Below, in pieces: positions 2,672 to 49,088 of a stretch of DNA of 64,000 nt; position 1 is the first letter of the stretch; each line of letters starts with the position of its first letter. The DNA lies in assembly GCF_034670085.1 (NCBI RefSeq), contig NZ_JAXMOD010000005.1, forward strand, positions 228,449 through 292,448. The letters run 5' to 3'. The position numbers and the translations under genes are program-made. Source of the DNA: Psychroserpens sp. (GTDB lineage Bacteria > Bacteroidota > Bacteroidia > Flavobacteriales > Flavobacteriaceae). Under the pieces are notes generated by a model. It ran no database searches. It was not told where the DNA came from and saw nothing but the letters and a program-made list of their open reading frames with translations.

Positions 2672-2715
2672 CAACTGCAAAAATAAAGCCAAAACATCGT
2701 ATAACCAAACTCAAG

Positions 2716-3777: not shown

Positions 3778-3881
3778 TAATTAATCAGTTTATTACCACT
3801 TATTTTATCAGAATTTATGACCTTTGTAAGTGTAAAATCATAATATATTCTCCGTTTTATCGAAACTTAAATATCAAATAA

Positions 3882-7270: not shown

Positions 7271-7297
7271 ATTACCTTTGCAAAATCATTTTAGATT

Positions 7298-7795
7298 ATG
7301 TTAGAGAAATTTAAATTACGATGGGAAATCCAAGAAAATTGGCAACTTTTGTTTCCTATACTTGGTTTGTCAGGATTGGGATATAGTGCGTGGAAACTTG
7401 CAGTAAGACTTACTAATGCCTATTCTATAATCTTTACAATTGCTACAGCAGTTTTGTTGTTGTTTATACTCTTAAAATTAACCTTATATATTTTCAAGAA
7501 ACTAGAACACAAATGGATTTTAGATTATAAATGGGAAATGATACGAGTCTTTATCGTATTTGCAGTAACGGGATCATCTTCGCTATTTGTAGGAAGACCA
7601 ATAATGAAGCTCATAGGAATTACTAAAGAAAACTTAAACCCTATTCTTTATTGGGTATTATTCATTATTATTGGACTAATTTTCTACCAAATACTTTTAG
7701 TTATGTTTGGTTGGCTTTTTGGTCAATTTAAATTCTTCTGGGAATTTGAAAAGAAAATGCTCAACCGATTTGGTTTAGGTAAATGGATTAATTAG
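7298..7795 (+). CDS. Integral membrane protein of unknown function (about 4 TM)
   Basis: Hydrophobic segments LLFPILGLSGLGY, IIFTIATAVLLLFILLKLTLYIF, VFIVFAVTGSSSLFV and ILYWVLFIIIGLIFYQILLVMFGWLF. Its stop overlaps the next start (TAGTG). Confidence 0.7.
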   Translation: MLEKFKLRWEIQENWQLLFPILGLSGLGYSAWKLAVRLTNAYSIIFTIATAVLLLFILLKLTLYIFKKLEHKWILDYKWEMIRVFIVFAVTGSSSLFVGRPIMKLIGITKENLNPILYWVLFIIIGLIFYQILLVMFGWLFGQFKFFWEFEKKMLNRFGLGKWIN

Positions 7796-8127
7796 TGAAT
7801 AACTACAAACAACATATCGCTTTTAGAATAGCTACAGTTTTTATTGTACTTTGTTTGGTATTGCCTACCGTTGTTAAGATGTCACATGCATTTAGCAATC
7901 ATGAGCATGACGTTTGTCTTGTTGAAAATCAATCACATTTTCATGAAATTGATTCAGATTGTGAATTTTATAAGTTCAATGTTAACCATCAAACAACATT
8001 AACCTATTTTAGTTTCAGTCCATTTGAAGCTGATGAAAGTCAAAACCTCATTGCTTCTAAATATTTATTTTTAAGCACTTTTCAGAAACTTCATTTTTCA
8101 CTTCGAGGTCCACCTTTTAATAGTTAA
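7795..8127 (+). CDS. Small membrane-anchored His/Cys-rich protein
   Basis: GTG start overlapping the upstream stop. It has one N-terminal TM (IATVFIVLCLVLPTVV), then HAFSNHEHDVC...SHFHEIDSDCEF. It lies directly upstream of the TonB-dependent receptor. Confidence 0.6.
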   Translation: MNNYKQHIAFRIATVFIVLCLVLPTVVKMSHAFSNHEHDVCLVENQSHFHEIDSDCEFYKFNVNHQTTLTYFSFSPFEADESQNLIASKYLFLSTFQKLHFSLRGPPFNS

Positions 8128-8192
8128 TATTTTTCTGCTACTGATAACACTTAATTATCAGTCAATTTTTAACTATTAAAATTCAATATACA

Positions 8193-10424
8193 ATGAAAAC
8201 AAATTATGTTTTTGTATTACTATTTTTGGTAATACAAACCTTATGGTCACAAAATACATTACAAGGAAAAGTAACAGATGCAGACTCAAATGCAGCATTA
8301 GTTTACGTAAACATCTATCTTCCTGAACTAGAAAAAGGAACCGTTACTAATGAAAATGGTACTTTCGAACTATACAATATTCCAAATGGGAACTATAAAA
8401 TTATAGTATCGTTTGTAGGCTATGAAACCTATTCGCAAACACTAAGTTTTCCAACCACAGAAAACTTATCTATCACATTAACGCATTCAGCAATTGAAAT
8501 GGAAGAAATCATAATTTCTACACCTTTTCATAAACTCCAAAGCGAAAATGTAATGAAGGTTGAGCGAAAAGACGTTAAGGAATTACGAGTGCAAGGTGCA
8601 GTTAACCTTATTGATGGCATTAGTAATATCGCTGGAGTAAATAATGTGAGTACAGGAATAAGCATTGGTAAGCCTGTCATTAGAGGTTTGAGCTCGAATA
8701 GAGTTTTGGTGTATACTCAAGGTGTTCGATTAGAAAATCAACAATATGGTGATGAACACGGTTTAGGGATAAACGATGCTGGAATTGAAAGTGTTGAAGT
8801 GATAAAAGGACCTGCTTCTCTACTCTATGGAAGTGATGCGCTTGGAGGTGTTTTATATTTGAATCCAGAGCGTTTTGCAGATGAAAACTCATCAGAAGGA
8901 AACTTGCAAACACGATTTTTTACTAATACTCAGGGTTACAATTCTAGTGCAGGTTTTAAAGCCTCTGGGTCAGAATTTAAATTTCTTTTTAGAGGTAGCC
9001 TTTCCGAACATTCAGATTATGAAACGCCAGATTATAGGGTTACCAACACTAGATTTAGAGAACAAGATTTTAAAGCTGGTTTAGGATATCAAAAGAATAA
9101 TTTCAAAACAGAATTGCGGTATAACCTTAATAATGCAAAACTTGGGATACCTGAAGACATTGGAGAGCAAAGCACAAACAGAACACCTTTAGAACCCTTT
9201 CAGGAAATCACGAATCACATATTTAGTTCTAAATCTACCGTGTTTTTTAATAATTCTAGTTTAGACTTTACATTTGGCTTTACGTATAATGATAGAAAAG
9301 AATTTGAAGATCATCATCATGAAGAAGATCTTGAGGAAAACGAAGAAGAACATGAGGATGAGGAGCATGAGGAAGACGAAGAAGCAGCGCTTCACATGAA
9401 ATTGAAAACTTTCAATTATAATATTAAATATAATCTTCCAAAATTTGGTCGTTTTGAAACTATTGTTGGTGTACAAGGAATGAATCAAGTAAACACAAAC
9501 TATGGAGAAGAAATTTTAATTCCGAATGCTATAACCAATGATATTGGAATTCTGGCAACTTCTCATATTCATTTTAAAACTGTAGATATTCAACTTGGAG
9601 CTCGTTTTGATAATAGAACTATAGATATAAATAATGCAATAACTAAAGACTTTAATAGTTTTAACGGTGCTTTTGGAATAAAAACAGATCTGTTTAAAAA
9701 AGTTACTGCACGTTTAAATTTGGCAACAGGATTTAGAGCGCCCAATTTATCTGAATTAGCATCTGATGGGACTCATGAAGGCACAAATCGATATGAAATC
9801 GGTAATATTGATTTAAATAATGAGCAGAATTTTCAAATAGATTTTGCTTTAGAATATACCAATGAACATGTTGAGATATTTGCTAATGCATTTTATAATA
9901 GTATCAACGATTATATTTTCTTAAATCCTAATGGTGAATTTATAGATGAAAATCCAGTTTTTCTTTATCAACAAGATAATGCAAGACTTTATGGTGGAGA
10001 ATTCGGTTTTCATTTTCATCCACATCCTATAGATTGGTTGCATGTGGAATCAAGTTTTGAAACGGTAACTGGTCAATTAGATGATGATAGTTATTTACCT
10101 CTAATTCCGGCCAACACACTGAATAATACAATAAGAGTTGAATTTGAAAGAAATTGGTTCAAAGAAGGTTATGCTTATGTAAAATACAGTTCTACTTTTA
10201 ATCAGAAAAAAGTGAGTGATTTTGAAAGCACAACTAAAGGATTTAACCTATTAAGTGCTGGATTTGGAGCCACTGTAAAATTATTCGAAAAAAATCTAGA
10301 TATCAGCATAGCAGCTAATAATTTAACAGATGAACGGTTTACAAATCATTTATCTCGTTTAAAACCAGATGGAATATTAAATATCGGACGTAATATTAGT
10401 TTTGGCTTGAATTATACACTGTAA
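8193..10424 (+). CDS. TonB-dependent receptor with CarboxypepD_reg N-domain and an internal His/Glu/Asp-rich loop
   Basis: Signal peptide; LQGKVTDADSNAALVYVNIYL...GNYKIIVSFVGYET (CarboxypepD_reg); plug motif VIKGPASLLYGSDALGGVLYL; beta-barrel C-terminus GRNISFGLNYTL. The acidic/His loop DHHHEEDLEENEEEHEDEEHEEDEE is encoded at 9309-9383. Confidence 0.88.
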   Translation: MKTNYVFVLLFLVIQTLWSQNTLQGKVTDADSNAALVYVNIYLPELEKGTVTNENGTFELYNIPNGNYKIIVSFVGYETYSQTLSFPTTENLSITLTHSAIEMEEIIISTPFHKLQSENVMKVERKDVKELRVQGAVNLIDGISNIAGVNNVSTGISIGKPVIRGLSSNRVLVYTQGVRLENQQYGDEHGLGINDAGIESVEVIKGPASLLYGSDALGGVLYLNPERFADENSSEGNLQTRFFTNTQGYNSSAGFKASGSEFKFLFRGSLSEHSDYETPDYRVTNTRFREQDFKAGLGYQKNNFKTELRYNLNNAKLGIPEDIGEQSTNRTPLEPFQEITNHIFSSKSTVFFNNSSLDFTFGFTYNDRKEFEDHHHEEDLEENEEEHEDEEHEEDEEAALHMKLKTFNYNIKYNLPKFGRFETIVGVQGMNQVNTNYGEEILIPNAITNDIGILATSHIHFKTVDIQLGARFDNRTIDINNAITKDFNSFNGAFGIKTDLFKKVTARLNLATGFRAPNLSELASDGTHEGTNRYEIGNIDLNNEQNFQIDFALEYTNEHVEIFANAFYNSINDYIFLNPNGEFIDENPVFLYQQDNARLYGGEFGFHFHPHPIDWLHVESSFETVTGQLDDDSYLPLIPANTLNNTIRVEFERNWFKEGYAYVKYSSTFNQKKVSDFESTTKGFNLLSAGFGATVKLFEKNLDISIAANNLTDERFTNHLSRLKPDGILNIGRNISFGLNYTL

Positions 10425-37303: not shown

Positions 37304-37763
37304 AATCATACCTTTCGATAATCAATATGCGAACGATTTCTATAAATTAAACATAGAATGGTTAAAAACGTACTTTTACGTAGAACCGTTTGATGAAGAT
37401 GTCTTAGGTCAACCAAAAACACACATCATTAATAAAGGAGGTCATATCTTTTTTGCGAAATGTGATGACTTCATACTGGGAACAGTGGCACTAATGCCTA
37501 CAAACGACCCTAAAGTATTCGAATTGACTAAAATGGCTGTTCTACCTGATTTACGAGGACAAAAAATTGGTCAACAGCTACTGCAACATTGTATAGATTT
37601 TGCCAAATCAATTCAATTGGAAGCATTAATGCTCTATTCGGCAACAAAACTGGAAAACGCTATTTATTTGTATAGGAAATATGGCTTTGTAGAACTAGAA
37701 CTTGAAAAAAACAGTCCGTATGTGCGAAGTGATATTAAAATGGAATTAAAGTTTATTTATTAA
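37290..37763 (+). CDS. GNAT family N-acetyltransferase
   Basis: VALMPTNDPKVFELTKMAVLPDLRGQKIGQQLLQHCIDFAK (Q/RxxGxG/A acetyl-CoA loop) and YRKYGF. It overlaps the upstream gene end by 14 nt. Confidence 0.8.
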   Translation: MKAIEIIPFDNQYANDFYKLNIEWLKTYFYVEPFDEDVLGQPKTHIINKGGHIFFAKCDDFILGTVALMPTNDPKVFELTKMAVLPDLRGQKIGQQLLQHCIDFAKSIQLEALMLYSATKLENAIYLYRKYGFVELELEKNSPYVRSDIKMELKFIY

Positions 37764-39003
37764 ACTTCAAAATTTTCGTATTAATAATTTTATCATCTAG
37801 CTGAATTAATAAGGTATAAACACCTGAAGCATAGGTTGACAAATCTATAGTTTGGTTTAAAAAGTTTGCTTTAGACTGTACAACTTGTCCAAAACTATTT
37901 ATAAGCTGAAAAGCGAAAGGTTTGTTGTTTTTAAAAGTAATATTCAAAATTCCAGTCGTTGGGTTTGGATACATAGTTACAGCATTTGAATCATACTCGT
38001 AATCGTTAGTTGATAATGATAAACAACTTGTATTAATAATGATTAAACCATCATTTGAAGCTGCATAAATCGTTTCTGAATCATATTGAGATTCTTCAAA
38101 AAGATTAACACCTGGAAGCGTTTGGGAATTATTATCCAAGAATTCCCAATCATTTTGACCTTTGAAAGCAATTTTTCCATCTCCTGTATTCTCAGGCTCA
38201 CCTGCTCCTATCCATAAATACCCTTGGGAATCAAATTTAACAGCATTAGCAACTAAACCGCTAATGTTGTCCATGTCATTGAAAATTGTAGGTGTGTTTT
38301 CATTGTGCTCAATTAACCAATTGTCATTTTCAAATTTTAATAAGCCATACCAGTTTGTAGCATATACAATATCTGAATGTGCTGTAATGCCATTCAGAAA
38401 ATTAAAAGACTCAATAGGTAATATAGAATTTGTGACATCATACACATTCCAGTTGATGCCATCAAAGGTTAATATATCATATTCATAAAAGGCATAATTA
38501 GATAACCAGAGATTTCCGTTGTCATCATAATCCATAGACGTGGTCATCCCACAACATGACGGTGTAACTAATGTTTGTAAATCTTGAGTGTAAATAATTT
38601 GATTACTGGCATTTAAAATATTGAATTCATATTGAGCAGCAATTGCTAAATTATCATTAGGTGTAGTTGTCATTACGCCTTGAATAGTAGTGCTTATTTC
38701 TTGAAAATTATCATTTGATAGTTGCATTAAGGATAAGTCTGTACTTACATACAATCGTCCATTAATGTTTAGAACCGACTTTATTGAATTGCTTGAAATA
38801 GTGCTATTAGAAGTTGTATATATCTGAAAGTCTTCAGTTATTTTATCATATGAAATTAGTCCATTATTGTAAGTGCCTAACCAAATAAATTGGTTGTCAT
38901 CTGTTACTGAACTCACATTATAACCACTAAGTACGATATCAAAACATGCTGTTTGCGAATTACAAATTTGTGCACAAAGAAGTAAGGCAAATAATAGTCT
39001 CAT
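37753..39003 (-). CDS. Beta-propeller-like secreted protein with T9SS C-terminal sorting domain
   Basis: Signal peptide MRLLFALLLCAQICNSQ; repeated W/Y-containing blades (FIWLGTYNNGL, NLWLSNY, YLWIGAG); C-terminus VTMYPNPTTGILNITF...GVYTLLIQ. It is on the same strand as the upstream cluster, 68 nt after it. Confidence 0.8.
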   Translation of the reverse strand: MRLLFALLLCAQICNSQTACFDIVLSGYNVSSVTDDNQFIWLGTYNNGLISYDKITEDFQIYTTSNSTISSNSIKSVLNINGRLYVSTDLSLMQLSNDNFQEISTTIQGVMTTTPNDNLAIAAQYEFNILNASNQIIYTQDLQTLVTPSCCGMTTSMDYDDNGNLWLSNYAFYEYDILTFDGINWNVYDVTNSILPIESFNFLNGITAHSDIVYATNWYGLLKFENDNWLIEHNENTPTIFNDMDNISGLVANAVKFDSQGYLWIGAGEPENTGDGKIAFKGQNDWEFLDNNSQTLPGVNLFEESQYDSETIYAASNDGLIIINTSCLSLSTNDYEYDSNAVTMYPNPTTGILNITFKNNKPFAFQLINSFGQVVQSKANFLNQTIDLSTYASGVYTLLIQLDDKIINTKILKFNK

Positions 39004-39071: not shown

Positions 39072-40772
39072 CTAATGCTCTCCAGTTGCCTTCAATGAAT
39101 CAATTTTGCGTTGCAAGGCTTCAATTTCTTTGGTCTTTTCATCGATTTTAGGCATCGCCATAATAGAATCAACTGCTTGCTGAATTATAAGATCTTCATC
39201 TATGAGTTCTTCTTGGTAGAAATAACCGATGCCTTCACTTGATCTCCAAGCCTCTCCTAATTGGTCATACACTTCCTTATCCCAAGTACTTGGATGTTTT
39301 ACATCTATCCATACTACATCGCGATATTCACTATCAATCAAAACCAAATCTGGTGTTGCAGAACCATCAAATTGTTGATCGTTGACATTACTAATAGCAG
39401 AAATTGTTCCTAGAAAAAACATTCGCTTTCTACCTGCAATATCTTTAATATATGGTCTAAACTCTACAGGTGTATTTGCTGTCCAATCGATTTCTTTTTT
39501 AGATTCTTTCACCTTTTGAGGCATTGCAGACACTCCAGCATAACCTTGTTTTTTTGCTGCATGATCGTAATAATATAATTTATCTGTTCCATCTGCAGGA
39601 ATAAATACGCTATAGCTTAAACTAGTTCGTTCATCACCAATAGGTTCTAAACCAAACCAATGATATAAACCACTATAGGCATCACTTTCTGAGCCAGCAA
39701 AATCAAAATCGGTGACATATGGTTGTTGATTCTGATCTTTTGGCATTTTTGGGATTTTAACTGCTGTCAACATATTCCATGGTAAAGGATCACTAAAACC
39801 TCCTAAGAATTTTAAAGATTCTGCTTGTAAACGAGATACCTTTTCTGCCAAGGTGTTTTGTTTATTGAGGTATGGAAAGTTTTTCATCTCATCAGGAGCA
39901 ATATAAGTTCCTTTTCCAATGGTTATACGTTCCATATAATCATTAAAATCATGTTCACCATTTTCAATAACCATGACACCACCAAAACTTGGATATGGAA
40001 AGAAAAAGCCTTTCCACTTAATTAAACTCACGACTTGTACCCATTCTCCATTATCATCTTTCATATAAAACGTATCACTAGGTTCGTAGTTCACCAACAT
40101 CCAAGGGTTGAATCGTTGTACCACTGCGTTATACGTATTGCGGCTAAATTTCAATGTTTCACCTATTGAAAAGGTCACAGGAATTCTATTTTCATTTGAA
40201 AAACGAGGAAATGGCGTTGTACTAGAAACGGCAAAGACCTCTTCTGTATTATCACTTATTTGTTGAAAGGTATAGTTTTCAGAAGGCTGAATGGCCATGG
40301 TCCATTTATTTTCATTATCCACTCGAACTAAATGCGGAAGTGAAACATCTTTGGTCTCTCCTACACTTTCGTTAGCCATGGTGAAAATATTCTGTAACGG
40401 TTGAATCCGTTCATTTTGTGTAAAAGGTAATTCGTTAATTTCAACCTTATTTATATCATTGAAAACGTTATACGTCTTCATATAATCATATAATTTTAGA
40501 TGCCATCCTGCAAGATATATTAAACCATAAAAGGCAATTAAAGCCACAAGAATTCCTAAACGCTTTCCTGTACTGGCCGAACTTCTAAATTTTTTAAGTC
40601 CGAATAGCAATACTATCAGACTTAAAATGATGATAAAGATGTATTTTCTGATAAATAATAATCCAGGTTGATAATCGTCACGCAGCACAAAAAGAGCGAT
40701 AAGCAATATGAGGCTTACTATAATAGTTATGACTTTTTGTTTTTTTCCTTTATTCCAATATGATTTGATCAT
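39072..40772 (-). CDS. 3-TM membrane protein with a large (about 475 aa) predicted periplasmic domain and a C-terminal coiled coil; unknown function (cluster gene 8)
   Basis: K-rich N-terminus, then TMs VITIIVSLILLIALFVL, YIFIIILSLIVLLFGL and LGILVALIAFYGLIYLAGW, then a long soluble domain. It ends in EKTKEIEALQRKIDSLKATGEH. No family recognised. Confidence 0.75.
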   Translation of the reverse strand: MIKSYWNKGKKQKVITIIVSLILLIALFVLRDDYQPGLLFIRKYIFIIILSLIVLLFGLKKFRSSASTGKRLGILVALIAFYGLIYLAGWHLKLYDYMKTYNVFNDINKVEINELPFTQNERIQPLQNIFTMANESVGETKDVSLPHLVRVDNENKWTMAIQPSENYTFQQISDNTEEVFAVSSTTPFPRFSNENRIPVTFSIGETLKFSRNTYNAVVQRFNPWMLVNYEPSDTFYMKDDNGEWVQVVSLIKWKGFFFPYPSFGGVMVIENGEHDFNDYMERITIGKGTYIAPDEMKNFPYLNKQNTLAEKVSRLQAESLKFLGGFSDPLPWNMLTAVKIPKMPKDQNQQPYVTDFDFAGSESDAYSGLYHWFGLEPIGDERTSLSYSVFIPADGTDKLYYYDHAAKKQGYAGVSAMPQKVKESKKEIDWTANTPVEFRPYIKDIAGRKRMFFLGTISAISNVNDQQFDGSATPDLVLIDSEYRDVVWIDVKHPSTWDKEVYDQLGEAWRSSEGIGYFYQEELIDEDLIIQQAVDSIMAMPKIDEKTKEIEALQRKIDSLKATGEH

Positions 40773-40783
40773 TCTTTGATTTT

Positions 40784-40851
40784 TGTCATTCTGCGCTGCG
40801 ACGCAGAATCAATTTAATATGTATGGATTCCGCATCAATTGCGGAATGACA
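40784..40851. repeat. GC-rich compound palindromic element (REP-like) in the intergenic gap of the cluster
   Basis: tgtcatt-ctgcgctgcgacgcag-aat...att-ccgcatcaattgcgg-aatgaca. It has two internal hairpins (ttctgcg/cgcagaa and attccgca/tgcggaat) bracketed by tgtcatt/aatgaca, with no U-run. Confidence 0.75.
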
Positions 40852-40857
40852 GTTGTT

Positions 40858-41394
40858 TTACATCAACCCTTTATCTTTTAAACGTTCTCGTGCCGATTTT
40901 TGATCAGGACTTGTTTCAGGTTTAATAGCTTCTTTAGTATCTTCTAAGACTTCTTTGTCTTTATTTTTAAAATCATCGATAAGATCTTTACCTTTTTCGA
41001 CTACACTATCAAATTTATCTTCTAAAGTTTCACTCTGTTCTTCAATAACTTTTGAAGATTTAAGTACAAAATTGGCAAGGTACGTTCCAATTAAAGTGCC
41101 TGTTGCAAAAGATGCAAACCCAGAGAGTACAAAATAATTAGTGAAAACTTCTACAGGTGTTAAAAATTGAATGATTAGTCCTATGATAAGCATACTTGTA
41201 ATAATAAAAATCAACCGTGGAATAAATGCACGTTGATAAATGAATCCTTTTTTACTGTCTGGAGCCATTTGTAATTCTTTACTATTGACTATTTTATTTA
41301 AAAAGCGATAGACACCATTTCCATTAGATTCTCTCCAGTATAAAAATATACCAAAAAGTATTGCAGCAATAAATATGACTAGTTCTAATCCCAT
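40858..41394 (-). CDS. 3-TM membrane protein with a highly charged C-terminal tail; unknown function (cluster gene 7)
   Basis: TMs LELVIFIAAILFGIFLYW, LIFIITSMLIIGLIIQFL and FVLSGFASFATGTLIGTYLANFVL, then a roughly 65-aa Glu/Lys/Asp-rich tail. Confidence 0.7.
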   Translation of the reverse strand: MGLELVIFIAAILFGIFLYWRESNGNGVYRFLNKIVNSKELQMAPDSKKGFIYQRAFIPRLIFIITSMLIIGLIIQFLTPVEVFTNYFVLSGFASFATGTLIGTYLANFVLKSSKVIEEQSETLEDKFDSVVEKGKDLIDDFKNKDKEVLEDTKEAIKPETSPDQKSARERLKDKGLM

Positions 41395-41442
41395 AGTTGT
41401 TGATTTTTAGTTTGAAGCCTTTATAAAGTTAGTCTAATTTTG

Positions 41443-42678
41443 TTAGATATTGTTACTAATAGTTTCAATTACCCAATCTTGTAATGACTCATCCCAAGTT
41501 TCATATAGTTTATAAAACTCTTGTTTATCATACCAATATATAAATAGAATATCCTTAGGTGAAATATTAACTAATAGTTTCCATATTAAATCTTGGTGTT
41601 TTGGATCTAAACTTGAATGTGGTTCGTGCAGAGCATCGAATAAATCCTCATCAACAATATCTGATATTTTATATTGATTACTTGTTTCTAATTTTTCTAA
41701 GTAACGTTCAACGCTCATTATTTTTTTACGAGTATCAATATCAATTTTATTCAAATAACTCTTAAATAATAAAGGGTCATTTAAAATGTTTTTGACAGGA
41801 TGTTGCGTGTCTTTTAAGTGTTGTGCAAACTCAAATTTCTTTATCCTTTCATAGCGTTTCGTTTTAATAACCTCTTCTAAATCATATGTAATAATGATAT
41901 GATCACGAAGTTTTTCCATAAGCTCTGGTTGAGAAATATGAAATATAATAACATCGTGAACGGTGTCTTTAATAGCTTCTTTATACCATTTCTTATCTTC
42001 AAAAACGAGTATAGGTGTGATAAAATCCCTCAGCACATAAACACCTCCAAATGATCTTGTATAAAAAGAATCGGTCACAAAACTAATAGATCTTAGATTT
42101 AAATCTCGCTCTCTTAAATCACCATATTTTGTTGCAGATTCTAGCAACTGATTATGAATGTCTTCATCTATAAAATTGTTTCCAAATTTAAATTTTTCGA
42201 TGAGATCTAATTGTTCCTGTCTTACATTATCTAAATTATTGATAAGATGAAACCTTATTGTAATCCGTTGATATCTTAAAAGATCAAAAGGCTCATAAAA
42301 TGTATCAATACCTTGATCAAAGTCAATACAAATGGCTGAATCTCTTGTAATATCGTTTATTTTATCACTATGAGTTTTAAACACTAATTGCATCATATCT
42401 CTATCAAACGTATGATAGGGCAAATACACAGGTTTTTGATTTTGTAACGGAGAAATTATAATGCCATGTGGATTTGATTCGCCATTACCCAAATAATATT
42501 GTTCGCCCTTTTCTTCAGCAATTTCGGGACTCCAGCCAATTCCATCAATAGAGAACTTTGTCAGTTTAGTTTCACTAAACCCCATTTTTTTTAAGCATTG
42601 ATTATAACGCTCAACTAATTTCCCAGAAACTGGAATGAGTTCACTTCTATATAGGTTTTCAGCTTTTAATTTTTGCAT
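41443..42678 (-). CDS. 411-aa cytoplasmic protein of unknown function (cluster gene 6)
   Basis: No signal peptide or TM, and no motif I can assign. Its start overlaps the stop of the Nudix gene (TAATG at 42676-42680). Confidence 0.75.
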   Translation of the reverse strand: MQKLKAENLYRSELIPVSGKLVERYNQCLKKMGFSETKLTKFSIDGIGWSPEIAEEKGEQYYLGNGESNPHGIIISPLQNQKPVYLPYHTFDRDMMQLVFKTHSDKINDITRDSAICIDFDQGIDTFYEPFDLLRYQRITIRFHLINNLDNVRQEQLDLIEKFKFGNNFIDEDIHNQLLESATKYGDLRERDLNLRSISFVTDSFYTRSFGGVYVLRDFITPILVFEDKKWYKEAIKDTVHDVIIFHISQPELMEKLRDHIIITYDLEEVIKTKRYERIKKFEFAQHLKDTQHPVKNILNDPLLFKSYLNKIDIDTRKKIMSVERYLEKLETSNQYKISDIVDEDLFDALHEPHSSLDPKHQDLIWKLLVNISPKDILFIYWYDKQEFYKLYETWDESLQDWVIETISNNI

Positions 42679-43256
42679 TACACTAATATATTTATCTGAG
42701 CATATTGCAATAACATAATTGTTTTTGCATCAATAATAGCTTTTGTTTTAATCATTTCAATTGCTTTGTTAAAAGAAATTTCCAGGACCTCTATTTCTTC
42801 ATCTTCGGAAGCTAATCCTCCTCCATCATTAACTTTCATATCCTCTGAATATTCAGCAGTAAAAAGATACAATTTTTCAGTCAATGCACCTGGAGACATA
42901 TATGCTTCCATAACACATGTTGCATCATCGATTTTAAACCCAACTTCTTCTTCAATCTCTCTTATAATTGTCCATTTAGGAGATTCATTTTTATCTATTG
43001 CGCCAGCACAAACTTCAATAGACATGCCTTCACTTCTATCATTTTCAAATATTGGCATTCTAAATTGTTTCGTTAAAATCACTGTACGTTTTTTAGTATT
43101 GTATAATAATACAGCAGCACCATTTCCACGATTATAACACTCGCGTTTTAAACGTTTATATTCTCCATTTTTAAATTGATAATCATAGTCAATTCTATAA
43201 AGTGTTGCCCAAGCTTTAGAAAGAACGTTGTGTGTTATGTTTTTGATTTGTTTCAT
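42678..43256 (-). CDS. nudK: Nudix hydrolase, NudK/ADP-ribose-pyrophosphatase-like (cluster gene 5)
   Basis: Exact Nudix box GAIDKNESPKWTIIREIEEEVGF (Gx5Ex7REUxEExGU). RECYNRGNGAAVLLYNTKKRTVILTKQFR, AYMSPGALTEKLYLFTAEYS and EDEEIEVLEISF closely parallel E. coli NudK as I recall it. Confidence 0.8.
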   Translation of the reverse strand: MKQIKNITHNVLSKAWATLYRIDYDYQFKNGEYKRLKRECYNRGNGAAVLLYNTKKRTVILTKQFRMPIFENDRSEGMSIEVCAGAIDKNESPKWTIIREIEEEVGFKIDDATCVMEAYMSPGALTEKLYLFTAEYSEDMKVNDGGGLASEDEEIEVLEISFNKAIEMIKTKAIIDAKTIMLLQYAQINILV

Positions 43257-43260
43257 TTAT

Positions 43261-43334
43261 TCATTCCTATGAAGGCAGCAATCTATTTTAATTGGTTATT
43301 GAGATTCCTCGTCGATTTGCACTGTCGGAATGAC
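43261..43334. repeat. Degenerate GC-rich palindromic element (REP-like) in the intergenic gap of the cluster
   Basis: tcattcc (43261-43267) pairs with ggaatga (43327-43333). It shares the 3' box gtcGGAATGACAa with the elements at 40784 and 45331. Confidence 0.55.
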
Positions 43335-43346
43335 AATTGATTAATA

Positions 43347-45308
43347 TTAATCATTTCTTCCAAATTGTTCACGAGCTTCTGTATCAATCTTTAGTTGATT
43401 CACTCTCGCGTCTACTTTTCGTTTAAAGTCTGTATCTGCAATCGTAGCGACATTATCTAAATAACGCACAACTTCTTGACGTCTAATTTCAGAAAAGTCT
43501 AAACCTTTCATGTTAGAACGCATTAACTCTTGTAACATATTGAATTTTGATTCGTAATCTTTTTTGAAATATAAATCTGGGTTTTCAAACCAATCTTCTT
43601 CCAAATCGAAATCGGTTAATCGTAAGGAGACTGCGCTTTGAATATTTCTTACATCACGTGATGAGAAAAATGGAAAAATCTTCTGAATTTCTTTATATAA
43701 ATTGGCATAAAACAAATGTTGATTAGTTTTAAAACTGCCTTCTATTTTATCATATGCCTCTAAAACTCGCTCTTCAGTTGGTTTATCTGAAACTTTTAAA
43801 ATTTCACCCATGTTTTTAGCCAATCCTTGATCTTGCAGGTAACTATAGTTTTCTGGACCTTGCATGTTTACAAAATCTGGCATTGTATCATCAAGTTTTC
43901 TCCACCATAAATGGTCTTGATCTAAAAAGTCATGCTCTGTACGTGCACCATCAATTTTAAAACGACCTTGTACACGAGAAATAACGGCTTTATCTAGCAT
44001 CTCTGGGAGATTGGTAAATAAACCAATAGAACTATTACCATAATTAACAGCATAAGCACCTTCAGTATACCTTAAAAACACACCTATCACTTCTTTAACA
44101 CCAGCAGACACGCCTTGAGCAGTTCGTTCTTGTAAATTGTTTTCAGCATCATCAATAGGTGCAAAAATTAATTTTGAAGGATCCTGCAAAGGTTTCATCC
44201 ATTCTACCATCTTTTCTGCTGAACCACCTTGAAATGTAGAAATCAATGTGTCTGGCATTGGATGAAATAAAAATGGAATATCTAAGTTATCACAATGTTC
44301 TTTTAGTCGCGTTGCTATGGCAGCAATTAGCATACTTTTTCCGGTTCCTGGAATTCCGTAACCCATAAACACAGGCATAAAACCTCCAAGTTCTTGAAAC
44401 GGATTCTTTTTGGCCGTAAAATCATAACTCAGCATGCGTTCAGTTAATCGTCTAGCAAAGTGTTTTGCATCTCTATTACCTACAATTTGTTCAAACTGAA
44501 TTTTATTAAACTCAATACTTTTCGCAGTGCCTTGAAACACATTTTCCCAACCTGACACTGCAAACTCAGAATGCTCTAGTTTGTAGGTTCTATCAACTAT
44601 AGTTTCGGTGTATTCCAAACTACTTTTACGCATTTGAATTTCCGCAATTAAGGCTTCGAAATATACCACAGTGAAGTCGATGACATCTTTATCGGTTTTA
44701 ACAATCTCAGGATGACCTAAGTATTTATCATAGTAAAATAAGGCACATGAAATACCTTTTAAAGGCGACATTAATGATACTTCTGGAATACCAGCAAACT
44801 TATTTTTCATGACACTTAAATCATCTGAAGCAATAGTTTGCAAATCATGCAAAATCTTATAGGCTACAGAAAACAACATAAAAGCTGTGGCTGTTTGCAT
44901 TTTACTTTCATATTCACGTTTGCCTGAATTATCTAAAGCAGATTTGTTTTCAGATAAGCTAGATAAACCTGAGGCATCGTAATAACTGTCTTTAATCCAG
45001 ATGCCTAAAGTAATTCCTTCCTGAACAGCATAAAGGGTTTGATTTAAGTGAATAGGAATGGCAATGGACTCAGGTAACAACCGTTTTTTAAGTTCTAAAA
45101 TCGTCTTAGAAACTGAAGTTACTTCTGCTCCACCATTTCCTTTGGCGCGTGATAAATACAAAAGAATCGATTCATCTTTTGCATCTTTATCTTTGTTTTT
45201 TGCACGCTGACCTTGTTCCCATTGTACACTTTTAATATAGGAGGTTGCTTCATCTCGAAGCATATCAAGTTCATTTTGTTTTATAGGAAATGTTGAGTTG
45301 TGTTCCAT
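43347..45308 (-). CDS. Classical-clade AAA+ ATPase with unique N- and C-terminal regions (cluster gene 4)
   Basis: Walker A GYGIPGTGKSMLIAAIA (aa 316-332; nt around 44334-44357); Walker B LIFAPIDDAEN (DD instead of DE); sensor-1/second region of homology FTNLPEMLDKAVISRVQGRFKI, which parallels TNRPDxLDPALLRPGRFD. About 275 aa N-terminal and about 195 aa C-terminal to the module are unassigned. Confidence 0.85.
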   Translation of the reverse strand: MEHNSTFPIKQNELDMLRDEATSYIKSVQWEQGQRAKNKDKDAKDESILLYLSRAKGNGGAEVTSVSKTILELKKRLLPESIAIPIHLNQTLYAVQEGITLGIWIKDSYYDASGLSSLSENKSALDNSGKREYESKMQTATAFMLFSVAYKILHDLQTIASDDLSVMKNKFAGIPEVSLMSPLKGISCALFYYDKYLGHPEIVKTDKDVIDFTVVYFEALIAEIQMRKSSLEYTETIVDRTYKLEHSEFAVSGWENVFQGTAKSIEFNKIQFEQIVGNRDAKHFARRLTERMLSYDFTAKKNPFQELGGFMPVFMGYGIPGTGKSMLIAAIATRLKEHCDNLDIPFLFHPMPDTLISTFQGGSAEKMVEWMKPLQDPSKLIFAPIDDAENNLQERTAQGVSAGVKEVIGVFLRYTEGAYAVNYGNSSIGLFTNLPEMLDKAVISRVQGRFKIDGARTEHDFLDQDHLWWRKLDDTMPDFVNMQGPENYSYLQDQGLAKNMGEILKVSDKPTEERVLEAYDKIEGSFKTNQHLFYANLYKEIQKIFPFFSSRDVRNIQSAVSLRLTDFDLEEDWFENPDLYFKKDYESKFNMLQELMRSNMKGLDFSEIRRQEVVRYLDNVATIADTDFKRKVDARVNQLKIDTEAREQFGRND

Positions 45309-45330
45309 TTTTATAATTAAAATTTATACT

Positions 45331-45370
45331 GTCATTTATTTTGGATTCTGCGTCTTAGCGCAGAATGACA
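45331..45370. repeat. GC-rich palindromic element (REP-like) in the intergenic gap of the cluster
   Basis: gtcatt...attctgcg tcttag cgcagaat gaca. It uses the same arm sequence (attctgcg/cgcagaat) as the element at 40784 and has no U-run on the transcribed strand. Confidence 0.7.
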
Positions 45371-45388
45371 AAACATATTAATTCATTT

Positions 45389-45835
45389 TTAATTTAGTCG
45401 ATATCGATACAATTTTGCAGCTTCTTCAATTTCGTCATCTAAATCACCATCATAGCTAAAACTTTGTATTCTCCATGTATCGTCTGGTCTGTAAAATTGA
45501 AAAGTAAATCGCAAAGGTTGACGATCATATTTTACTAAATAGCTAATAAGTACAAAACTATCTGATAATTTTTTTTCAAGAATGACCTCTTTACCATAGT
45601 ACTTTCCAACAAAATTTTCATTAAGTCCTTCCATCTGAGTTTTTAGTTTTTCAACTGCATCATTATTTCTTGAAATCCATGTATTACCACGATATAGCTC
45701 ATCTAAAGCAAATGTTGCTCCTTTAGTTTCAAAATTCTTAAAAAAATTGTCAACAAGATCTTGAGGTTTGTCTTGAGCAGACACCAGTCCCGTTATTGAA
45801 AAACACAGTAAGCAGATTAGAATATTTGATTTCAT
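45389..45835 (-). CDS. Exported 148-aa protein, alpha+beta (NTF2-like?) fold guess; unknown function (cluster gene 3)
   Basis: Signal peptide MKSNILICLLCFSITGLVSA-QD, with a mature protein of about 125 aa. It starts 4 nt after the upstream gene. Confidence 0.7.
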   Translation of the reverse strand: MKSNILICLLCFSITGLVSAQDKPQDLVDNFFKNFETKGATFALDELYRGNTWISRNNDAVEKLKTQMEGLNENFVGKYYGKEVILEKKLSDSFVLISYLVKYDRQPLRFTFQFYRPDDTWRIQSFSYDGDLDDEIEEAAKLYRYRLN

Positions 45836-45839
45836 AGTT

Positions 45840-46886
45840 CTATTTTTTAATAATTAAATTCGCTACTTCTATTGGTGGTTTTGCCAACAAATTCATAATT
45901 TCTGGTGTTTTATTATACAGTAATTGTATAATTCGATGTGGTGCAAATACATAATCTTGTTTTACGATGTCACTCCACTTTTGAAATACTTGTTTACTGA
46001 AATAGCCGCCCTCTTCAAATTCACTACCTGAAAACACTTCATGAATTTTAAAGGATAATGCGTAAGACTCTAAAGGAATTTCTTTACTCGCAATACTTTT
46101 AAGAATGGTATGTGTTATTTCATTTTCATCTTTAGCAAACACATTATGAAATGGTCCTAAATCAATACGTTTAATATGCTTAGGTCTTAGGTCTGGTAAT
46201 TTTCTATCGATGCCATAAGCCATCGTGTCTAAATTCATCTCACGATCTGCAGTACTTTTTAAAACCTCATAAATTTTGTCTTTATAACTTTCAATATTTC
46301 GACCATCATAATCAAAATACATAAAGCAAATAAATGGACGATTGTGAGCTACATCATAAAAACTCCAACTTGTCATGTATTGTGCTGAAGCTGTTTCTGG
46401 AGCATCAATAATTTTTCCCTGTACAAAACGATTGAAAATATATTTCTGTTCTACTGAGGTATAATAGACTATTGAAGCTGCTTGAAATAATTTGTCTTTT
46501 CTAACGGGTTGTTTTTTTCGAAGTAATTGATCAAGAAATTCTTCTTGTAATTCACTTACATCTCTAAGTTTAGCAACATAATTATCTTTTAATGACAAAT
46601 CATTGAATAAATATCTAAACTCTAAATAATTTGGGAAGCCAGAATCTGTTAGATCGACTTTCATATTATCTTCCTCGTCATACATGTATTTTACACGCAT
46701 AGCTTCAATTGAATACAATAATAAGTCACAATACTGTTTAAAAAAGACCAACTCTTTTGATGTGCACAAATTTTCCTTTTGAACACTAACAATAAGTTCT
46801 TTAAGTACAAAATCTACTTTTTTATGATAAAAGATGTATTGTTCTTTAGAATCTAGTACTGCGGAATCTAATGGCGTTACAATCAT
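45840..46886 (-). CDS. 348-aa cytoplasmic protein of unknown function (cluster gene 2)
   Basis: No signal peptide, TM or recognisable motif. It is tightly followed (4 nt) by the exported-protein gene. Confidence 0.75.
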   Translation of the reverse strand: MIVTPLDSAVLDSKEQYIFYHKKVDFVLKELIVSVQKENLCTSKELVFFKQYCDLLLYSIEAMRVKYMYDEEDNMKVDLTDSGFPNYLEFRYLFNDLSLKDNYVAKLRDVSELQEEFLDQLLRKKQPVRKDKLFQAASIVYYTSVEQKYIFNRFVQGKIIDAPETASAQYMTSWSFYDVAHNRPFICFMYFDYDGRNIESYKDKIYEVLKSTADREMNLDTMAYGIDRKLPDLRPKHIKRIDLGPFHNVFAKDENEITHTILKSIASKEIPLESYALSFKIHEVFSGSEFEEGGYFSKQVFQKWSDIVKQDYVFAPHRIIQLLYNKTPEIMNLLAKPPIEVANLIIKK

Positions 46887-46911
46887 AATCTACTTAGACA
46901 TAAGTTTCTTT

Positions 46912-47019
46912 GATGGTTTGCGTTAAGGATTGAATGGTCTATTTGAGCTCCTCGAAGAGAGCGAGTAATGAAAGCCTGACCTACTTATGCCGTTAAAAGC
47001 AGAAGTAGGAAACGCCATC
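46912..47019 (-). other. Structured, GC-enriched 108-nt intergenic element between cluster genes 1 and 2 (multi-stem RNA or composite REP)
   Basis: The outer stem gatgg(ttt)gcgtt (46912-46924) / aacgccatc (47011-47019) encloses the hairpins cctactt...aagtagg (46980-47009) and ctcg aagagag cgag (46951-46965). Confidence 0.4.
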
Positions 47020-47029
47020 ATTATTTTTA

Positions 47030-48373
47030 TTAGCTTAACAAATCGTCAGTACCACCTTCTGGCTTAGGAGTTCCATCTGGTTTTCCATCATCTCCAGCAG
47101 GTGCATTAGGATCTGCTTTATAGTAATCTTCGAAAATCTCTTTCATATCGATACCATAGCGCTCAGCAAAATTCTTTTGAATATCAATATCCTTTGCTCT
47201 AATTTCTTGCAAAGCCTCTGCATAACTGCTATACACACCTTGCATTACTTTTTCGTGAACAGGAATATTATCCATCATTTCTTGACGTGCTTTAGCACTT
47301 GCAGTATGCATAGACGCTAAAGTTTCACCAATATGCTCATCGGTTTTTACACCTAAATGTTCTAAAATGGCAGCAAACTCTTGATCTGTTCTTGCTTTTA
47401 AGGCCACCACGTAACCATCATAATACTTTAAACGTTCTTCAGTATCACTTTTTAATTTAGCACGATGCGTTTGCAGGTTACTGCGTAAAGAGGTTAATAC
47501 TTTGATGGTTAAATTATGTTTGTGAACGAAACTATCTTTAGAAGCCGCTAAGGTTGTATACGCATTTTTAAGGCCTTCTAATTCTTCAACTTTCTGTTCT
47601 AATGTTGTGACATCACCTATAGCTTGTGCATACTCAGCAGATTGCTTATCAACAATCTCTTCTAAAGCCTGACGTGCTTGTTTTAAAGCCGCATATTTTT
47701 CTTCAAGTTTAGCTTCTACTTCTTTCTTTTTCTCTAAAGCTTTAGTGTGATTTTTAGTCGCTTCAACAATGGCAGTTTGCAATTTATCTTCAACTTCTTT
47801 TATTTCAACCTCACGATTTTTTAATCGCGTCACTGCGGCTTGAGACTTATAGCTTAATTCGCTCAGTAACGTTTGAATGTCTGCACTTTCAATACGCGTT
47901 TGAAACATTGCCTTAGCTTTATTATCTGCTGCATCTCTATCTTTTTGAGCAACTTTTAATTCATCCTGAGCATCTTTAATCTTGCTTTTTCTTCCCCAAA
48001 GGTTATTCCACCATGTATCTGGTTTTGCTTCAGCATCTTCTAATTCAACTTTTGCCCGTTCTAAACGTTTGATGGCATCATCAATAATTTTTTGTTCATC
48101 TGCATTAAGCGAAGAAAATTTTTCAAATATAATCCCAACTTCATCCTGATAGTCTGTAAGATCTTTAATAGCATCAAGAAGTGTGGTTCTATCTTGCTCT
48201 GCCATATGAACAACATCATCAAGAGTAGCATTAAGAATCTTCTGGCGACTTTCTGGATCATCTTCTTGTGCAAGTTTAGATTTCATAGTGTCAATGGCTT
48301 TTCCCCAATTAACATCTACTTTCTCACTTTTCTCGTTAGTATTCGTTTCTAATAAATCAAAATCGTCAGACAT
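47030..48373 (-). CDS. 447-aa cytoplasmic coiled-coil protein with a Pro/Gly/Asp-rich C-terminal tail (cluster gene 1); TelA-like architecture possible
   Basis: Long heptad-rich Glu/Lys/Ala/Gln sequence throughout, for example KRLERAKVELEDAEAK and KALEKKKEVEAKLEEKYAALKQARQALEEI. The tail is DPNAPAGDDGKPDGTPKPEGGTDDLLS, with no TM. Confidence 0.75.
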   Translation of the reverse strand: MSDDFDLLETNTNEKSEKVDVNWGKAIDTMKSKLAQEDDPESRQKILNATLDDVVHMAEQDRTTLLDAIKDLTDYQDEVGIIFEKFSSLNADEQKIIDDAIKRLERAKVELEDAEAKPDTWWNNLWGRKSKIKDAQDELKVAQKDRDAADNKAKAMFQTRIESADIQTLLSELSYKSQAAVTRLKNREVEIKEVEDKLQTAIVEATKNHTKALEKKKEVEAKLEEKYAALKQARQALEEIVDKQSAEYAQAIGDVTTLEQKVEELEGLKNAYTTLAASKDSFVHKHNLTIKVLTSLRSNLQTHRAKLKSDTEERLKYYDGYVVALKARTDQEFAAILEHLGVKTDEHIGETLASMHTASAKARQEMMDNIPVHEKVMQGVYSSYAEALQEIRAKDIDIQKNFAERYGIDMKEIFEDYYKADPNAPAGDDGKPDGTPKPEGGTDDLLS

Positions 48374-48752
48374 GTTATGTATAGTGTTTTAAGTTGAACA
48401 AAGTTTCGGATAAGCAATTTCGTCAAAAAATATGATTTTAAAAACTTAATGTGCTTAAAATATCAGTAGTAAATTTGAATATTTTGTTACAAACTTTCTT
48501 TAGTCTTGTTTTATGATTATCCATTGGACTAATATTTTCAAAAGGCGTTACCATATAAATCTAAAAAGAGCGATTAATCACGAAAAAAAATAAACTGATT
48601 AATTAAATTGAAAAAATAAATTTCCATCAAAAAATAAGTCAAATAGCTGTACAGAAGAGCTATAGGTTGAATGGTATAAAAAATCCGATGAAGTGTAAGT
48701 GTTAAAATGTAACTTTTTTATAACTAATTAGTTGGCATTTGGAATAAAATTG

Positions 48753-48760
48753 TATATTTG
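48753..48760 (+). promoter_or_regulatory. Bacteroidota promoter (-7 TATATTTG, with TTG at 48732-48734)
   Basis: Exact TAnnTTTG match 30 nt upstream of the ATG at 48791, with a TTG 18 nt upstream of the box. Confidence 0.45.
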
Positions 48761-48790
48761 ATGAACCAAATCTAATTAAACTTATAAAAT

Positions 48791-49021
48791 ATGTTAGCTA
48801 ACTTCGTAAGGACTCATTCCCTCGTAAGCACTACTCAGCTCACTATTGTACTCATAATAACTGCCATAATATTTGCAGTCTTTATTGGCATTGCTGTCAT
48901 TAAAATGTATAAACTTAAAGCTGAAAATAAACGTTTGATGGATAAAAGTAAATATAAATCTGATGTAGAGAAAGAATACACAGATTTCACAGATAGTCAT
49001 TTGTATGATACTAAAGATTAA
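48791..49021 (+). CDS. 76-aa single-TM protein of unknown function
   Basis: TM QLTIVLIITAIIFAVFIGIAVI followed by a charged tail. It has its own promoter-like box and the terminator at 49060. The overlapping minus ORF 48794-49072 was judged a shadow ORF. Confidence 0.55.
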   Translation: MLANFVRTHSLVSTTQLTIVLIITAIIFAVFIGIAVIKMYKLKAENKRLMDKSKYKSDVEKEYTDFTDSHLYDTKD

Positions 49022-49059: not shown

Positions 49060-49088
49060 AAAAAGCCAGCAATTTGCTGGCTTTTTTG
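49060..49088. terminator. Bidirectional intrinsic terminator
   Basis: aaaa + agccagc aattt gctggct + tttttt. Confidence 0.85.

Follow-up and report, generated by a model that had tools for sequence, protein, structure and literature searches.

Among the described systems that come closest to the locus reported here are two that handle membranes. In ESCRT-III/Vps4 (ESCRT stands for endosomal sorting complexes required for transport; the pair is CdvB/CdvC in archaea and Snf7/Vps4 in eukaryotes), a single-domain AAA+ ATPase of the classical clade, with an aromatic pore loop, is encoded beside a helical coiled-coil protein. In the PspA/Vipp1 (IM30) systems, a coiled-coil protein is paired with small membrane proteins; their role is presumed to be membrane maintenance, and some of them include a classical AAA+ ATPase (PMC11237479). 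Our locus lies in a 64,000-nucleotide (nt) stretch of DNA from Psychroserpens sp. (Flavobacteriaceae; NCBI RefSeq assembly GCF_034670085.1, contig NZ_JAXMOD010000005.1, positions 228,449 to 292,448), which we call the window. The closest homologs (94-98% identity) also bear the genus name Psychroserpens. At positions 39072-48373 of the window, eight consecutive open reading frames (ORFs) on the minus strand encode proteins of 447, 348, 148, 653, 192, 411, 178 and 566 amino acids (aa). Six of these genes form a conserved unit, which probably encodes an undescribed cell-envelope machine. The six products are a coiled-coil protein (cc447), a cytoplasmic protein (p348), an AAA+ ATPase (653 aa), a DUF6638 protein (411 aa), and two proteins with transmembrane (TM) segments (tm178 and tm566). 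The other two genes encode a protein with a signal peptide (sp148) and a Nudix hydrolase (192 aa).

The locus resembles ESCRT-III/Vps4 in pairing this kind of ATPase gene with a coiled-coil gene and, probably, in acting at the cytoplasmic face of a membrane. Furthermore, Vps4 is among the best single-domain matches in PDB to the AAA+ core. In contrast to Vps4, the new ATPase has neither an MIT nor a Vps4_C domain: across 45 diverse members of its family (down to 23% identity), MIT was not matched at E ≤ 0.1, and there were no matches to Vps4_C or Cdc48_N. It also scores just 16.7 bits against the CdvC model NF041006, whose cut-off is 650. cc447 is roughly double an ESCRT-III protein in size and, unlike one, carries no Snf7 or PspA signal: Snf7 and PspA_IM30 had no match among the window proteins. 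Finally, p348 and DUF6638, which are obligatory, and the dedicated TM proteins have no counterpart in ESCRT.

The pairing of a coiled coil with membrane proteins is shared with PspA/Vipp1. We compared cc447 with these families directly: in 25 members of the cc447 family, hmmscan gave no match to PspA_IM30 or Snf7 at E ≤ 1, and hhalign gave a probability of 0.8% for the family profile against E. coli PspA. Homology of cc447 to PspA or ESCRT-III proteins was thus not detected. The new locus also differs from PspA/Vipp1 systems in having no PspB/C, Toastrack, Band-7 or CesT partners, and none of the AAA+ contexts in a survey of PspA- and Snf7-associated genes matches the present gene set (PMC11237479).

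The evidence that the six genes belong together comes from 168 loci: 80 from Flavobacteriaceae genomes, 8 distant loci that were reached via representative proteins, and 80 metagenome loci that were anchored on a relative of 32% identity. Gene families were assigned by iterative profile searches over the ORFs of these loci. The conserved order is cc447 > p348 > AAA+ > (Nudix) > DUF6638 > tm178 > tm566. The six-gene order is complete in 122 of the 168 loci (62 with the Nudix gene, 58 without it, and 2 that also have sp148), a count that includes many close Flavobacteriia; most of the other loci are cut by contig ends. The distant loci, whose AAA+ proteins are 24-31% identical, are stronger evidence for a unit than the raw counts are. 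In these loci p348 lies directly before the AAA+ gene and DUF6638 directly after it, and a member of the coiled-coil family lies upstream in most of them (not in L088). Profile searches found 160 matches to p348 over the 168 loci, with every distant locus represented, and the coiled-coil family was picked up iteratively in the distant loci.

We also found the operon in Rhizobiaceae, by searching PLSDB with the DUF6638 protein (tblastn). Sinorhizobium meliloti Ak57, Shinella sp. and Sinorhizobium sp. K101 share the order coiled coil > p348 > AAA+ > DUF6638 > DUF2333. These sequences were outside the profile building, and the matches have E-values of 1e-58 to 1e-156 (for S. meliloti, 6e-66 for p348 and 9e-60 for the coiled coil). 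The DUF6638 ortholog of S. meliloti matches PF20343 over its full length with 256 bits. PLSDB is a collection of plasmids, but the records with the rhizobial operon (CP090106.1, NZ_CP069303.1, NZ_CP104131.1 and others) are chromosome-sized, at 3.5-4.6 Mb. CP090106.1, which is labelled pSymB, bears trpE, fhs, tdk and choline-transport genes, so the replicon labels look wrong. Because of the size of the records and the apparent mislabelling, the PLSDB matches are no sign of plasmid carriage. In S. meliloti Ak57 (locus L169, positions 7048-8793), a gene with an endonuclease domain and an IS4-like ISRm16 transposase gene lie between the AAA+ and DUF6638 genes, which are 10 nt apart in Shinella (L176). 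The operon may be disrupted in Ak57.

Other relatives carry the NCBI label "Patescibacteria group bacterium"; these come from several independent metagenome-assembled genomes (MAGs), with one on a 600-kb contig. One relative is from a MAG labelled "Candidatus Woesearchaeota archaeon". In this single locus (L085, positions 2380-4730), the variant operon is preceded at a distance of a few kb by two Band_7 (SPFH) genes on the other strand. SPFH proteins often accompany systems for membrane maintenance. A strict motif for the AAA+ protein was present in at least 590 places among the GTDB species genomes. This motif scan returned close Flavobacteriaceae only, and the phylum-level spread comes from the MAG labels and the PLSDB matches. 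A metagenome scan with a single Patescibacteria protein gave no match.

Because the gene order is kept across phyla, the clustering is far beyond chance. The four cytoplasmic genes (the coiled coil, p348, AAA+ and DUF6638) are an invariant module in at least three bacterial phyla. The first-pass annotation of this DNA, made from the sequence alone, had proposed an undescribed system of eight genes and perhaps a ninth. The co-inheritance of a cytoplasmic AAA+ protein and a coiled coil with inner-membrane proteins bears out the idea of a system, and its proposed extent does not stand: sp148 is present in 2 of 168 loci and the Nudix gene is missing from about half, so the evolutionary unit is six genes. 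The annotation had put forward synteny as a check, and this holds: the genes of the 447-, 348-, 653- and 411-aa proteins stay together across Bacteroidota, and they do so in Rhizobiaceae and Patescibacteria as well. Beyond the six genes, we found no further conserved neighbors except for synteny that is specific to Flavobacteriia (EttA, a 76-aa ORF with a TM segment, and downstream genes).

The membrane part of the operon differs by lineage, and its proteins are not homologous from one type to another. Bacteroidota and some Patescibacteria have tm178 and tm566. The tm178 family has matches in 136 ORFs of the loci, including L081, L083 and L088, and the tm566 family keeps its synteny in 126 ORFs, with L081 and L083/84 among the loci. 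Rhizobia and the other Patescibacteria instead have a membrane module of one or two small TM proteins and a DUF2333 protein (just DUF2333 in the Rhizobiaceae loci), and two other loci have a third type, a TM protein of 470-605 aa. No homology was detected among the three types of large membrane protein (hhalign probabilities of at most 1.2%). In particular, we considered whether tm566 might be a DUF2333 protein (PF10095), and rejected this: it has no such match in Pfam, and hhalign against the DUF2333 proteins of the variant operons gave 1.2%. Neither the single sequence, the family profile, nor a scan of each member gave any match for tm566 in Pfam or PDB beyond TM noise. In every variant, the last genes of the operon encode TM proteins whose non-cytoplasmic domains are large. 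The charged, helical tail at the C-terminus of tm178 is probably cytoplasmic, as judged by the positive-inside rule.

The 653-aa protein looks like an active, substrate-threading AAA+ motor of the classical clade, given that all of its catalytic and pore-loop motifs are kept. PF00004 is matched by 44 of the 45 family members. Walker A reads GxPGTGK(S/T), with G318, G321, G323 and K324 invariant or nearly so. Walker B is D386-D387-A-E389; position 386 is D in 44 of 45 members and position 387 is D or E, so that the motif reads DDxE rather than DExx. The sensor-1 residue N433 does not vary; in the second region of homology (arginine fingers), R445 is likewise invariant, and either R or K stands at position 449. 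Pore loop 1 is [FY]359-Q360-G361, with F, Y or W at position 359 in 36 of 45 members, Q360 in 43 and G361 in all 45; the middle glutamine is unusual. The family profile matches AAA cores alone in PDB (Cdc48, VAT, p97, Afg2 and Vps4), over profile positions 259-450 and with E-values of 1e-30 to 1e-26. The nearest solved relatives of the core (Cdc48, VAT, p97 and Vps4) are unfoldases or disassemblases. The regions on either side (about 1-260 and 460-653) are family-specific and have no match outside the family, including in a search of PDB sequences with the N-terminal 260 aa. Clustering at 50% identity divides the family (E < 1e-30) into 128 groups, and nearly all of these are about 650 aa long.

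cc447 is a coiled-coil protein with an acidic N-terminus and, toward the C-terminus, a conserved GID(P/M) motif; its tail is acidic and rich in proline and glycine. At residues 119-130 it has a conserved aromatic-plus-basic motif, TWWNNLWGRKSK, with the family variants W/F-x-x-F/L-G-R/K. Its homologs are 88-98% identical across genera of Flavobacteriaceae. This is unusually high for a coiled coil and near the conservation of the neighboring translation factor EttA, which suggests a constraint on its whole length or surface, as in packing. No Pfam family was matched consistently among the 25 members that were scanned with hmmscan. We discount the database names "microtubule-binding protein" (NCBI) and "chromosome segregation ATPase", whose sole support is coiled-coil noise.

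For p348 and DUF6638 we built AlphaFold2 models from alignments of 10-15 divergent orthologs and compared them to 350,542 PDB chains with Foldseek. The p348 model (predicted local distance difference test, pLDDT, 88.3; predicted template modeling score, pTM, 0.86) is helical in its N-terminal half and alpha/beta in its C-terminal half. It has no PDB match at E ≤ 0.001 (best E 0.07, TM-score at most 0.18) and none in BFVD. GTP cyclohydrolase I and uricase were among the weak Foldseek matches to the C-terminal half, but with E ≥ 0.2 and TM-scores of at most 0.27 we consider this resemblance to the T-fold to be noise. The model of the DUF6638 protein (pLDDT 89.9, pTM 0.85) shows two domains, of which the N-terminal one is alpha/beta and the C-terminal one all-helical. 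It has no PDB match at E ≤ 0.001 either (best E 1.1, TM-score below 0.3), and no PDB profile match. Relative to solved structures, then, neither protein has a known fold, and on the strength of the models both are candidates for new folds and for new types of AAA+ cofactor. The DUF6638 gene follows the AAA+ gene in every distant locus examined as well as in Rhizobiaceae; we found no mention of DUF6638 or PF20343 in the literature that we searched.

The spacing of the genes hints at how their products might be balanced. The spacer between cc447 and p348 is long as a rule, with a median of 157 nt in 145 loci and 20 nt or less in just 1%. A long spacer here may set differential expression of the first gene; such spacing is typical of operons whose first product must outnumber the others. 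The p348/AAA+ and AAA+/DUF6638 junctions are 20 nt or less in 39-44% of loci, and in most distant loci and the rhizobial loci they are 3-12 nt or overlapping. These tight or overlapping junctions suggest translational coupling and a fixed stoichiometry of p348, AAA+ and DUF6638.

We tentatively favor the reading that the operon encodes a machine that maintains the envelope by using ATP to remodel a scaffold of coiled-coil protein at the membrane; by analogy with known systems this is plausible, though we would not call it the probable answer. As the product of the first cistron, the coiled-coil protein would be in excess, and it would assemble into a scaffold or polymer along the inner membrane, on the cytoplasmic side. 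This scaffold might be anchored via the conserved Trp/Phe-plus-basic motif or via the charged cytoplasmic tail of tm178, and the large TM protein would link it to events outside the membrane. A hexamer of the AAA+ protein would then use ATP to thread the scaffold and to disassemble or reshape it, and p348 and DUF6638 would serve it as dedicated cofactors or adaptors in fixed stoichiometry. The outcome would be an ATP-driven cycle of membrane or envelope maintenance that works like ESCRT-III/Vps4 or PspA and is built from unrelated proteins. The likeness to Vps4 acting on a filament is the most attractive working model, but it is only an analogy.

Several points weigh against this reading. The locus counts behind the conserved unit are inflated by many close Flavobacteriia and do not represent independent events. 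We infer the polymerization, the membrane binding and the identity of the substrate. The ATPase appears from its sequence to lack the MIT and Vps4_C domains, and cc447 gave neither an hmmscan match to PspA_IM30 or Snf7 nor an hhalign match to PspA. The adaptor role of p348 and DUF6638 is a guess, as they have no fold neighbors, and either could be an enzyme or the true substrate. Finally, the membrane partners are non-homologous between lineages, so they may be clients rather than anchors. A bolder version of the scaffold reading is possible but doubtful. It holds that the operon encodes an ancient and unrecognized AAA+ machine of Bacteroidota, Alphaproteobacteria, Patescibacteria and possibly DPANN, in which an unfoldase and two cofactors with novel folds cycle a coiled-coil lattice on the membrane. 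It would be a third independent solution to ATP-driven membrane remodeling or repair, beside ESCRT-III/Vps4 and PspA/Vipp1, with exchangeable outer modules that are specific to the envelope.

The main rival, which we consider somewhat unlikely, is a machine that chaperones, extracts or assembles membrane proteins, in the style of Msp1/ATAD1, Bcs1, Cdc48-Ufd1-Npl4 or FtsH-HflKC. p348 and DUF6638 would be its adaptors, the co-encoded membrane proteins or other envelope proteins its clients (to be unfolded, inserted, extracted or passed on), and the coiled coil a tether or regulator rather than the substrate. A constant cytoplasmic module with exchanged membrane proteins is what would be expected if these were lineage-specific clients or receptors. 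Cdc48/p97/VAT with Ufd1-Npl4 is similar in that its AAA domains are, with Afg2, the closest to the AAA+ core of the new ATPase, which has a threading pore loop, and in that a motor works with two dedicated cofactor proteins, which the two obligatory and tightly coupled partner genes resemble. However, the new ATPase has one AAA domain rather than two and no N domain of the Cdc48 type, and p348 and DUF6638 show neither homology to any adaptor family nor fold similarity to PDB entries; nor is there a ubiquitin-like or proteasome link. FtsH-HflK/C and Msp1/Bcs1 are similar in joining a motor of the classical AAA+ type to membrane proteins whose non-cytoplasmic domains are large. In contrast, this ATPase has no TM segment (hydropathy scan) to anchor it, no protease domain (Pfam) and no known cofactor domain, it scores 13.9 bits against an FtsH model with a cut-off of 600, and its partners are not SPFH proteins. 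Extraction also leaves unexplained why an abundant and extremely conserved coiled coil always comes first in the operon.

It is improbable that the operon is instead a module for the cytoskeleton, division or chromosome organization, with an SMC-like, DivIVA-like or filament-like coiled coil that is turned over by the AAA+ protein. The database labels on the coiled coil point this way, as do its weak matches to SMC, Rad50 and JetC and its very high, housekeeping-like conservation. However, those matches are far below the cut-offs (14.9 versus 567 bits) and cover coiled-coil stretches only, and there is no ATPase head. Furthermore, membrane proteins that have external domains close the operon in all its versions, and the neighborhoods show no link to division or segregation genes.

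The first-pass annotation had raised a nucleotide-linked conflict module as an alternative. In such an anti-phage system, the AAA+ protein would be a sensor or effector that acts with the Nudix hydrolase, and perhaps with p348 as a RES-like, NAD-utilizing enzyme, to damage the membrane upon infection. This is largely disfavored, and we give it very little credence. Its support includes weak and partial matches in PADLOC-DB 2.0: IetA to the AAA+ core (20.9 bits), JetC to the coiled coil (14.6 bits) and PDC-S07 to the Nudix protein, without their partner components. The IetA match covers the P-loop core only, and the similarity to IetAS ends there: the NCBIfam IteA model scores 14.7 bits versus a cut-off of 510, there is no IetS protease partner, and ours is a conserved syntenic locus that is not found in phages. 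Some p348 orthologs bear the UniRef label "RES domain-containing protein," but none of 57 members matches the Pfam RES family, and there is no PDB fold match. The invariant residues of p348 are S82, D227, P235, K236, S286 and Q321; it has no invariant Arg or Glu, in contrast to the Arg-Glu-Ser triad of RES. Nudix genes do recur near this system and near DUF2333 genes (PMC5256989 for the latter). However, the Nudix gene within the operon evolves fast and is missing from about half of the loci and all distant lineages.

The pattern of inheritance also argues against conflict. The operon is chromosomal and syntenic, its AAA+ and coiled-coil proteins are 88-90% conserved across genera (versus 95% for EttA; see the table), and its flanks are conserved housekeeping genes rather than a variable island. 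We found no copy in 50,697 phage genomes and no true member in IMG/VR. In these respects the operon behaves like vertically inherited housekeeping equipment and not like a defense island. The weakest alternative, that eight unrelated genes are co-oriented by chance, draws on the non-conserved sp148, Nudix and type IX secretion system (T9SS) genes and on gap hairpins that could in principle terminate transcription, but it is refuted for the six-gene core, whose order is kept across phyla and down to 24-31% identity of the AAA+ protein, and we give it next to no weight.

We rate the system as new because five of the six core families have no characterized relative. For the unknown proteins, searches with all nine proteins against Pfam, NCBIfam, PADLOC and PHROGs, PDB searches with single sequences and profiles, and Pfam scans of individual family members found no family beyond AAA, Nudix and DUF6638. 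The 447-, 348-, 148-, 178- and 566-aa proteins had no matches in these databases, whether as single sequences or as the family profiles that were tried. If this is a real machine, then cells of many lineages share a strongly conserved system of which only the generic AAA+ core is characterized, with a spread from marine Flavobacteriia to nitrogen-fixing rhizobia and ultra-small Patescibacteria. It could account for part of the "conserved hypothetical" core of Patescibacteria. If a role in membrane remodeling or in handling membrane proteins is true, it would be a new player in bacterial envelope homeostasis. The function is open to direct tests, since Sinorhizobium meliloti, which is genetically tractable, and Flavobacteriaceae that can be cultivated both have the operon. 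ChvI, a response regulator for envelope stress, is reported to bind a DNA fragment inside the hypothetical gene SMc02733 of S. meliloti (PMC3687685). The coordinate of SMc02733 is near the expected position of the rhizobial operon; it is at most a candidate member of the operon, and we did not use it as evidence.

Table. Features of the locus, in window coordinates. Identity is the median relative to the window protein across 73 Flavobacteriaceae genomes that keep EttA upstream.
Feature	Position	Strand	Median identity	Basis or remark
Core gene 1: coiled-coil protein cc447, 447 aa	47030..48373	-	88%	ORF
Core gene 2: p348, cytoplasmic, 348 aa	45840..46886	-	72%	Directly upstream of the AAA+ gene in all lineages; here sp148 is inserted, spaced by 4 nt
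Core gene 3: classical-clade AAA+ ATPase, 653 aa	43347..45308	-	90%	PF00004, 35.9 bits vs 21.2
Core gene 4: DUF6638 protein, 411 aa	41443..42678	-	73%	PF20343, 119.4 bits vs 27
Core gene 5 (Bacteroidota/Patescibacteria type): tm178, 178 aa, 3 predicted TM segments	40858..41394	-	59%	TM scan
Core gene 6 (Bacteroidota/Patescibacteria type): tm566, 566 aa, 3 N-terminal TM segments and extracytoplasmic domain of ~475 aa	39072..40772	-	79%	TM scan
Nudix hydrolase, 192 aa, YffH/AdpP (NudK-like); accessory but frequent insertion	42678..43256	-	52%	Stop overlaps DUF6638 start (TAATG)
sp148, 148 aa, with signal peptide; accessory insertion	45389..45835	-		2/168 loci
T9SS-sorted protein	37753-39003	-		Por_Secre_tail (44 bits) and Reg_prop repeats; lineage-specific neighbor
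EttA			95%	
AT-rich non-coding upstream (promoter/leader) region, 417 nt	48374..48790	-		GC 0.27
76-aa ORF, single TM segment, divergent from operon	48791-49021	+		Bounds the 417-nt upstream region
Spacer cc447/p348, 143 nt, stable hairpin, no T-run	46887..47029	-		Fold -32.3 kcal/mol, z -2.6
Palindromic hairpin element GTCATTCTGCG-loop-CGCAGAAT in sp148/AAA+ gap	45345..45369	-		Fold z -3.1
Degenerate copy of hairpin element, AAA+/Nudix gap	43303..43334	-		1 mismatch; gap fold z -0.96, not significant
tm178/tm566 gap, 85 nt, two inverted copies of hairpin element	40773..40857	-		Fold -27.7 kcal/mol, z -5.0
Hairpin-element copy in the 85-nt gap	40827-40850	-		Palindrome search
Hairpin-element copy in the 85-nt gap	40785-40809	+		Palindrome search

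Within the window, the gaps between the eight ORFs are, in order, 143, 4, 80, 90, -1 (the TAATG overlap), 48 and 85 nt, followed by 68 nt to the T9SS gene. Much of what the first-pass annotation had described here was correct: all coordinates of the eight ORFs agree, as do their lengths and gaps, and the AT-rich upstream region is present. A hydropathy scan also agreed with its account of topology, with a signal-like N-terminal segment in the 148-aa protein and TM segments confined to the 178- and 566-aa proteins. Of the products that it described, the classical-clade AAA+ ATPase (PF00004 above the gathering score, catalytic motifs kept) and the NudK-like Nudix hydrolase stand, but the 411-aa protein, which it had considered unrecognizable, belongs to DUF6638 (119 bits versus a cut-off of 27). 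The cluster gaps were said to be free of terminators, and our scan indeed found no minus-strand hairpin with a T-run in any of them; the consensus terminator scan placed a strong bidirectional terminator at 49060-49086, which ends the upstream ABC-F gene. The gaps are not featureless, as four of them have stable hairpins without T-runs (z of -2.6 to -5.0). An Rfam scan found no known RNAs in the cluster, including its upstream region.

The 192-aa Nudix protein is NudK-like by its sequence but is not assignable to NudK: it scores 150.9 bits against TIGR00052 (cut-off 79.55), and its score of 189.4 against the NudK equivalog NF011585 falls short of the cut-off of 234. The Nudix gene is present in 73 of 168 loci, between the AAA+ and DUF6638 genes in Flavobacteriia, and is missing from some close Psychroserpens as well as from all distant lineages. 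In Pseudomonas fluorescens, an uncharacterized DUF2333 gene adjoins genes for a Nudix hydrolase and an N-acetylmuramoyl-L-alanine amidase (PMC5256989). This was the one paper to mention DUF2333 in the literature that we searched, and none mentioned PF10095. We also observed a different Nudix gene downstream of a DUF2333-type operon (L086, positions 8269-8739). The recurrent tie between Nudix genes and the membrane module may be meaningful, for example in the turnover of nucleotide sugars or cell-wall precursors.

sp148 has no family match in Pfam, NCBIfam or PADLOC. The T9SS-sorted beta-propeller protein, which had been suggested as a ninth member, does not keep its place beside the core in related genomes: the first 88 loci gave just 6 weak matches to it, and one of these (20 bits) is on the opposite strand and far from the cluster. 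The 68-nt gap before this gene has no significant structure (z -0.84). By their distribution, the Nudix and sp148 genes are later insertions, and sp148 and the T9SS gene are local additions.

Homologs of the divergent 76-aa ORF (89 matches) occur in Flavobacteriia-type loci only and always on the opposite strand; their median distance to the first operon gene is 413 nt. This ORF may share a regulatory region with the operon, or the arrangement may be mere synteny.

Three of the four gaps with stable hairpins hold copies of one repeated palindromic element, with the consensus GTCATTC[CT]GC-loop-GC[GA]GAAT. Good copies in the window are confined to this operon. Across the 80 Flavobacteriaceae loci, 36 of 38 countable copies lie inside the cluster, which makes up 44% of the sequence in this count, and 4 of 42 inside/outside tallies fall outside. 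All copies are intergenic save 3 that lie within ORF calls that are possibly over-extended. The element also occurs in L003, L004, L005, L012, L018, L021 and further loci, and the gaps that it occupies and its orientations differ by genome. The stem variants CCGC/GCGG and CTGC/GCAG are compensatory. The element could be like a repetitive extragenic palindrome (REP) with a preference for this operon, or it could be a signal for RNA processing or stability that fixes the stoichiometry of the subunits.

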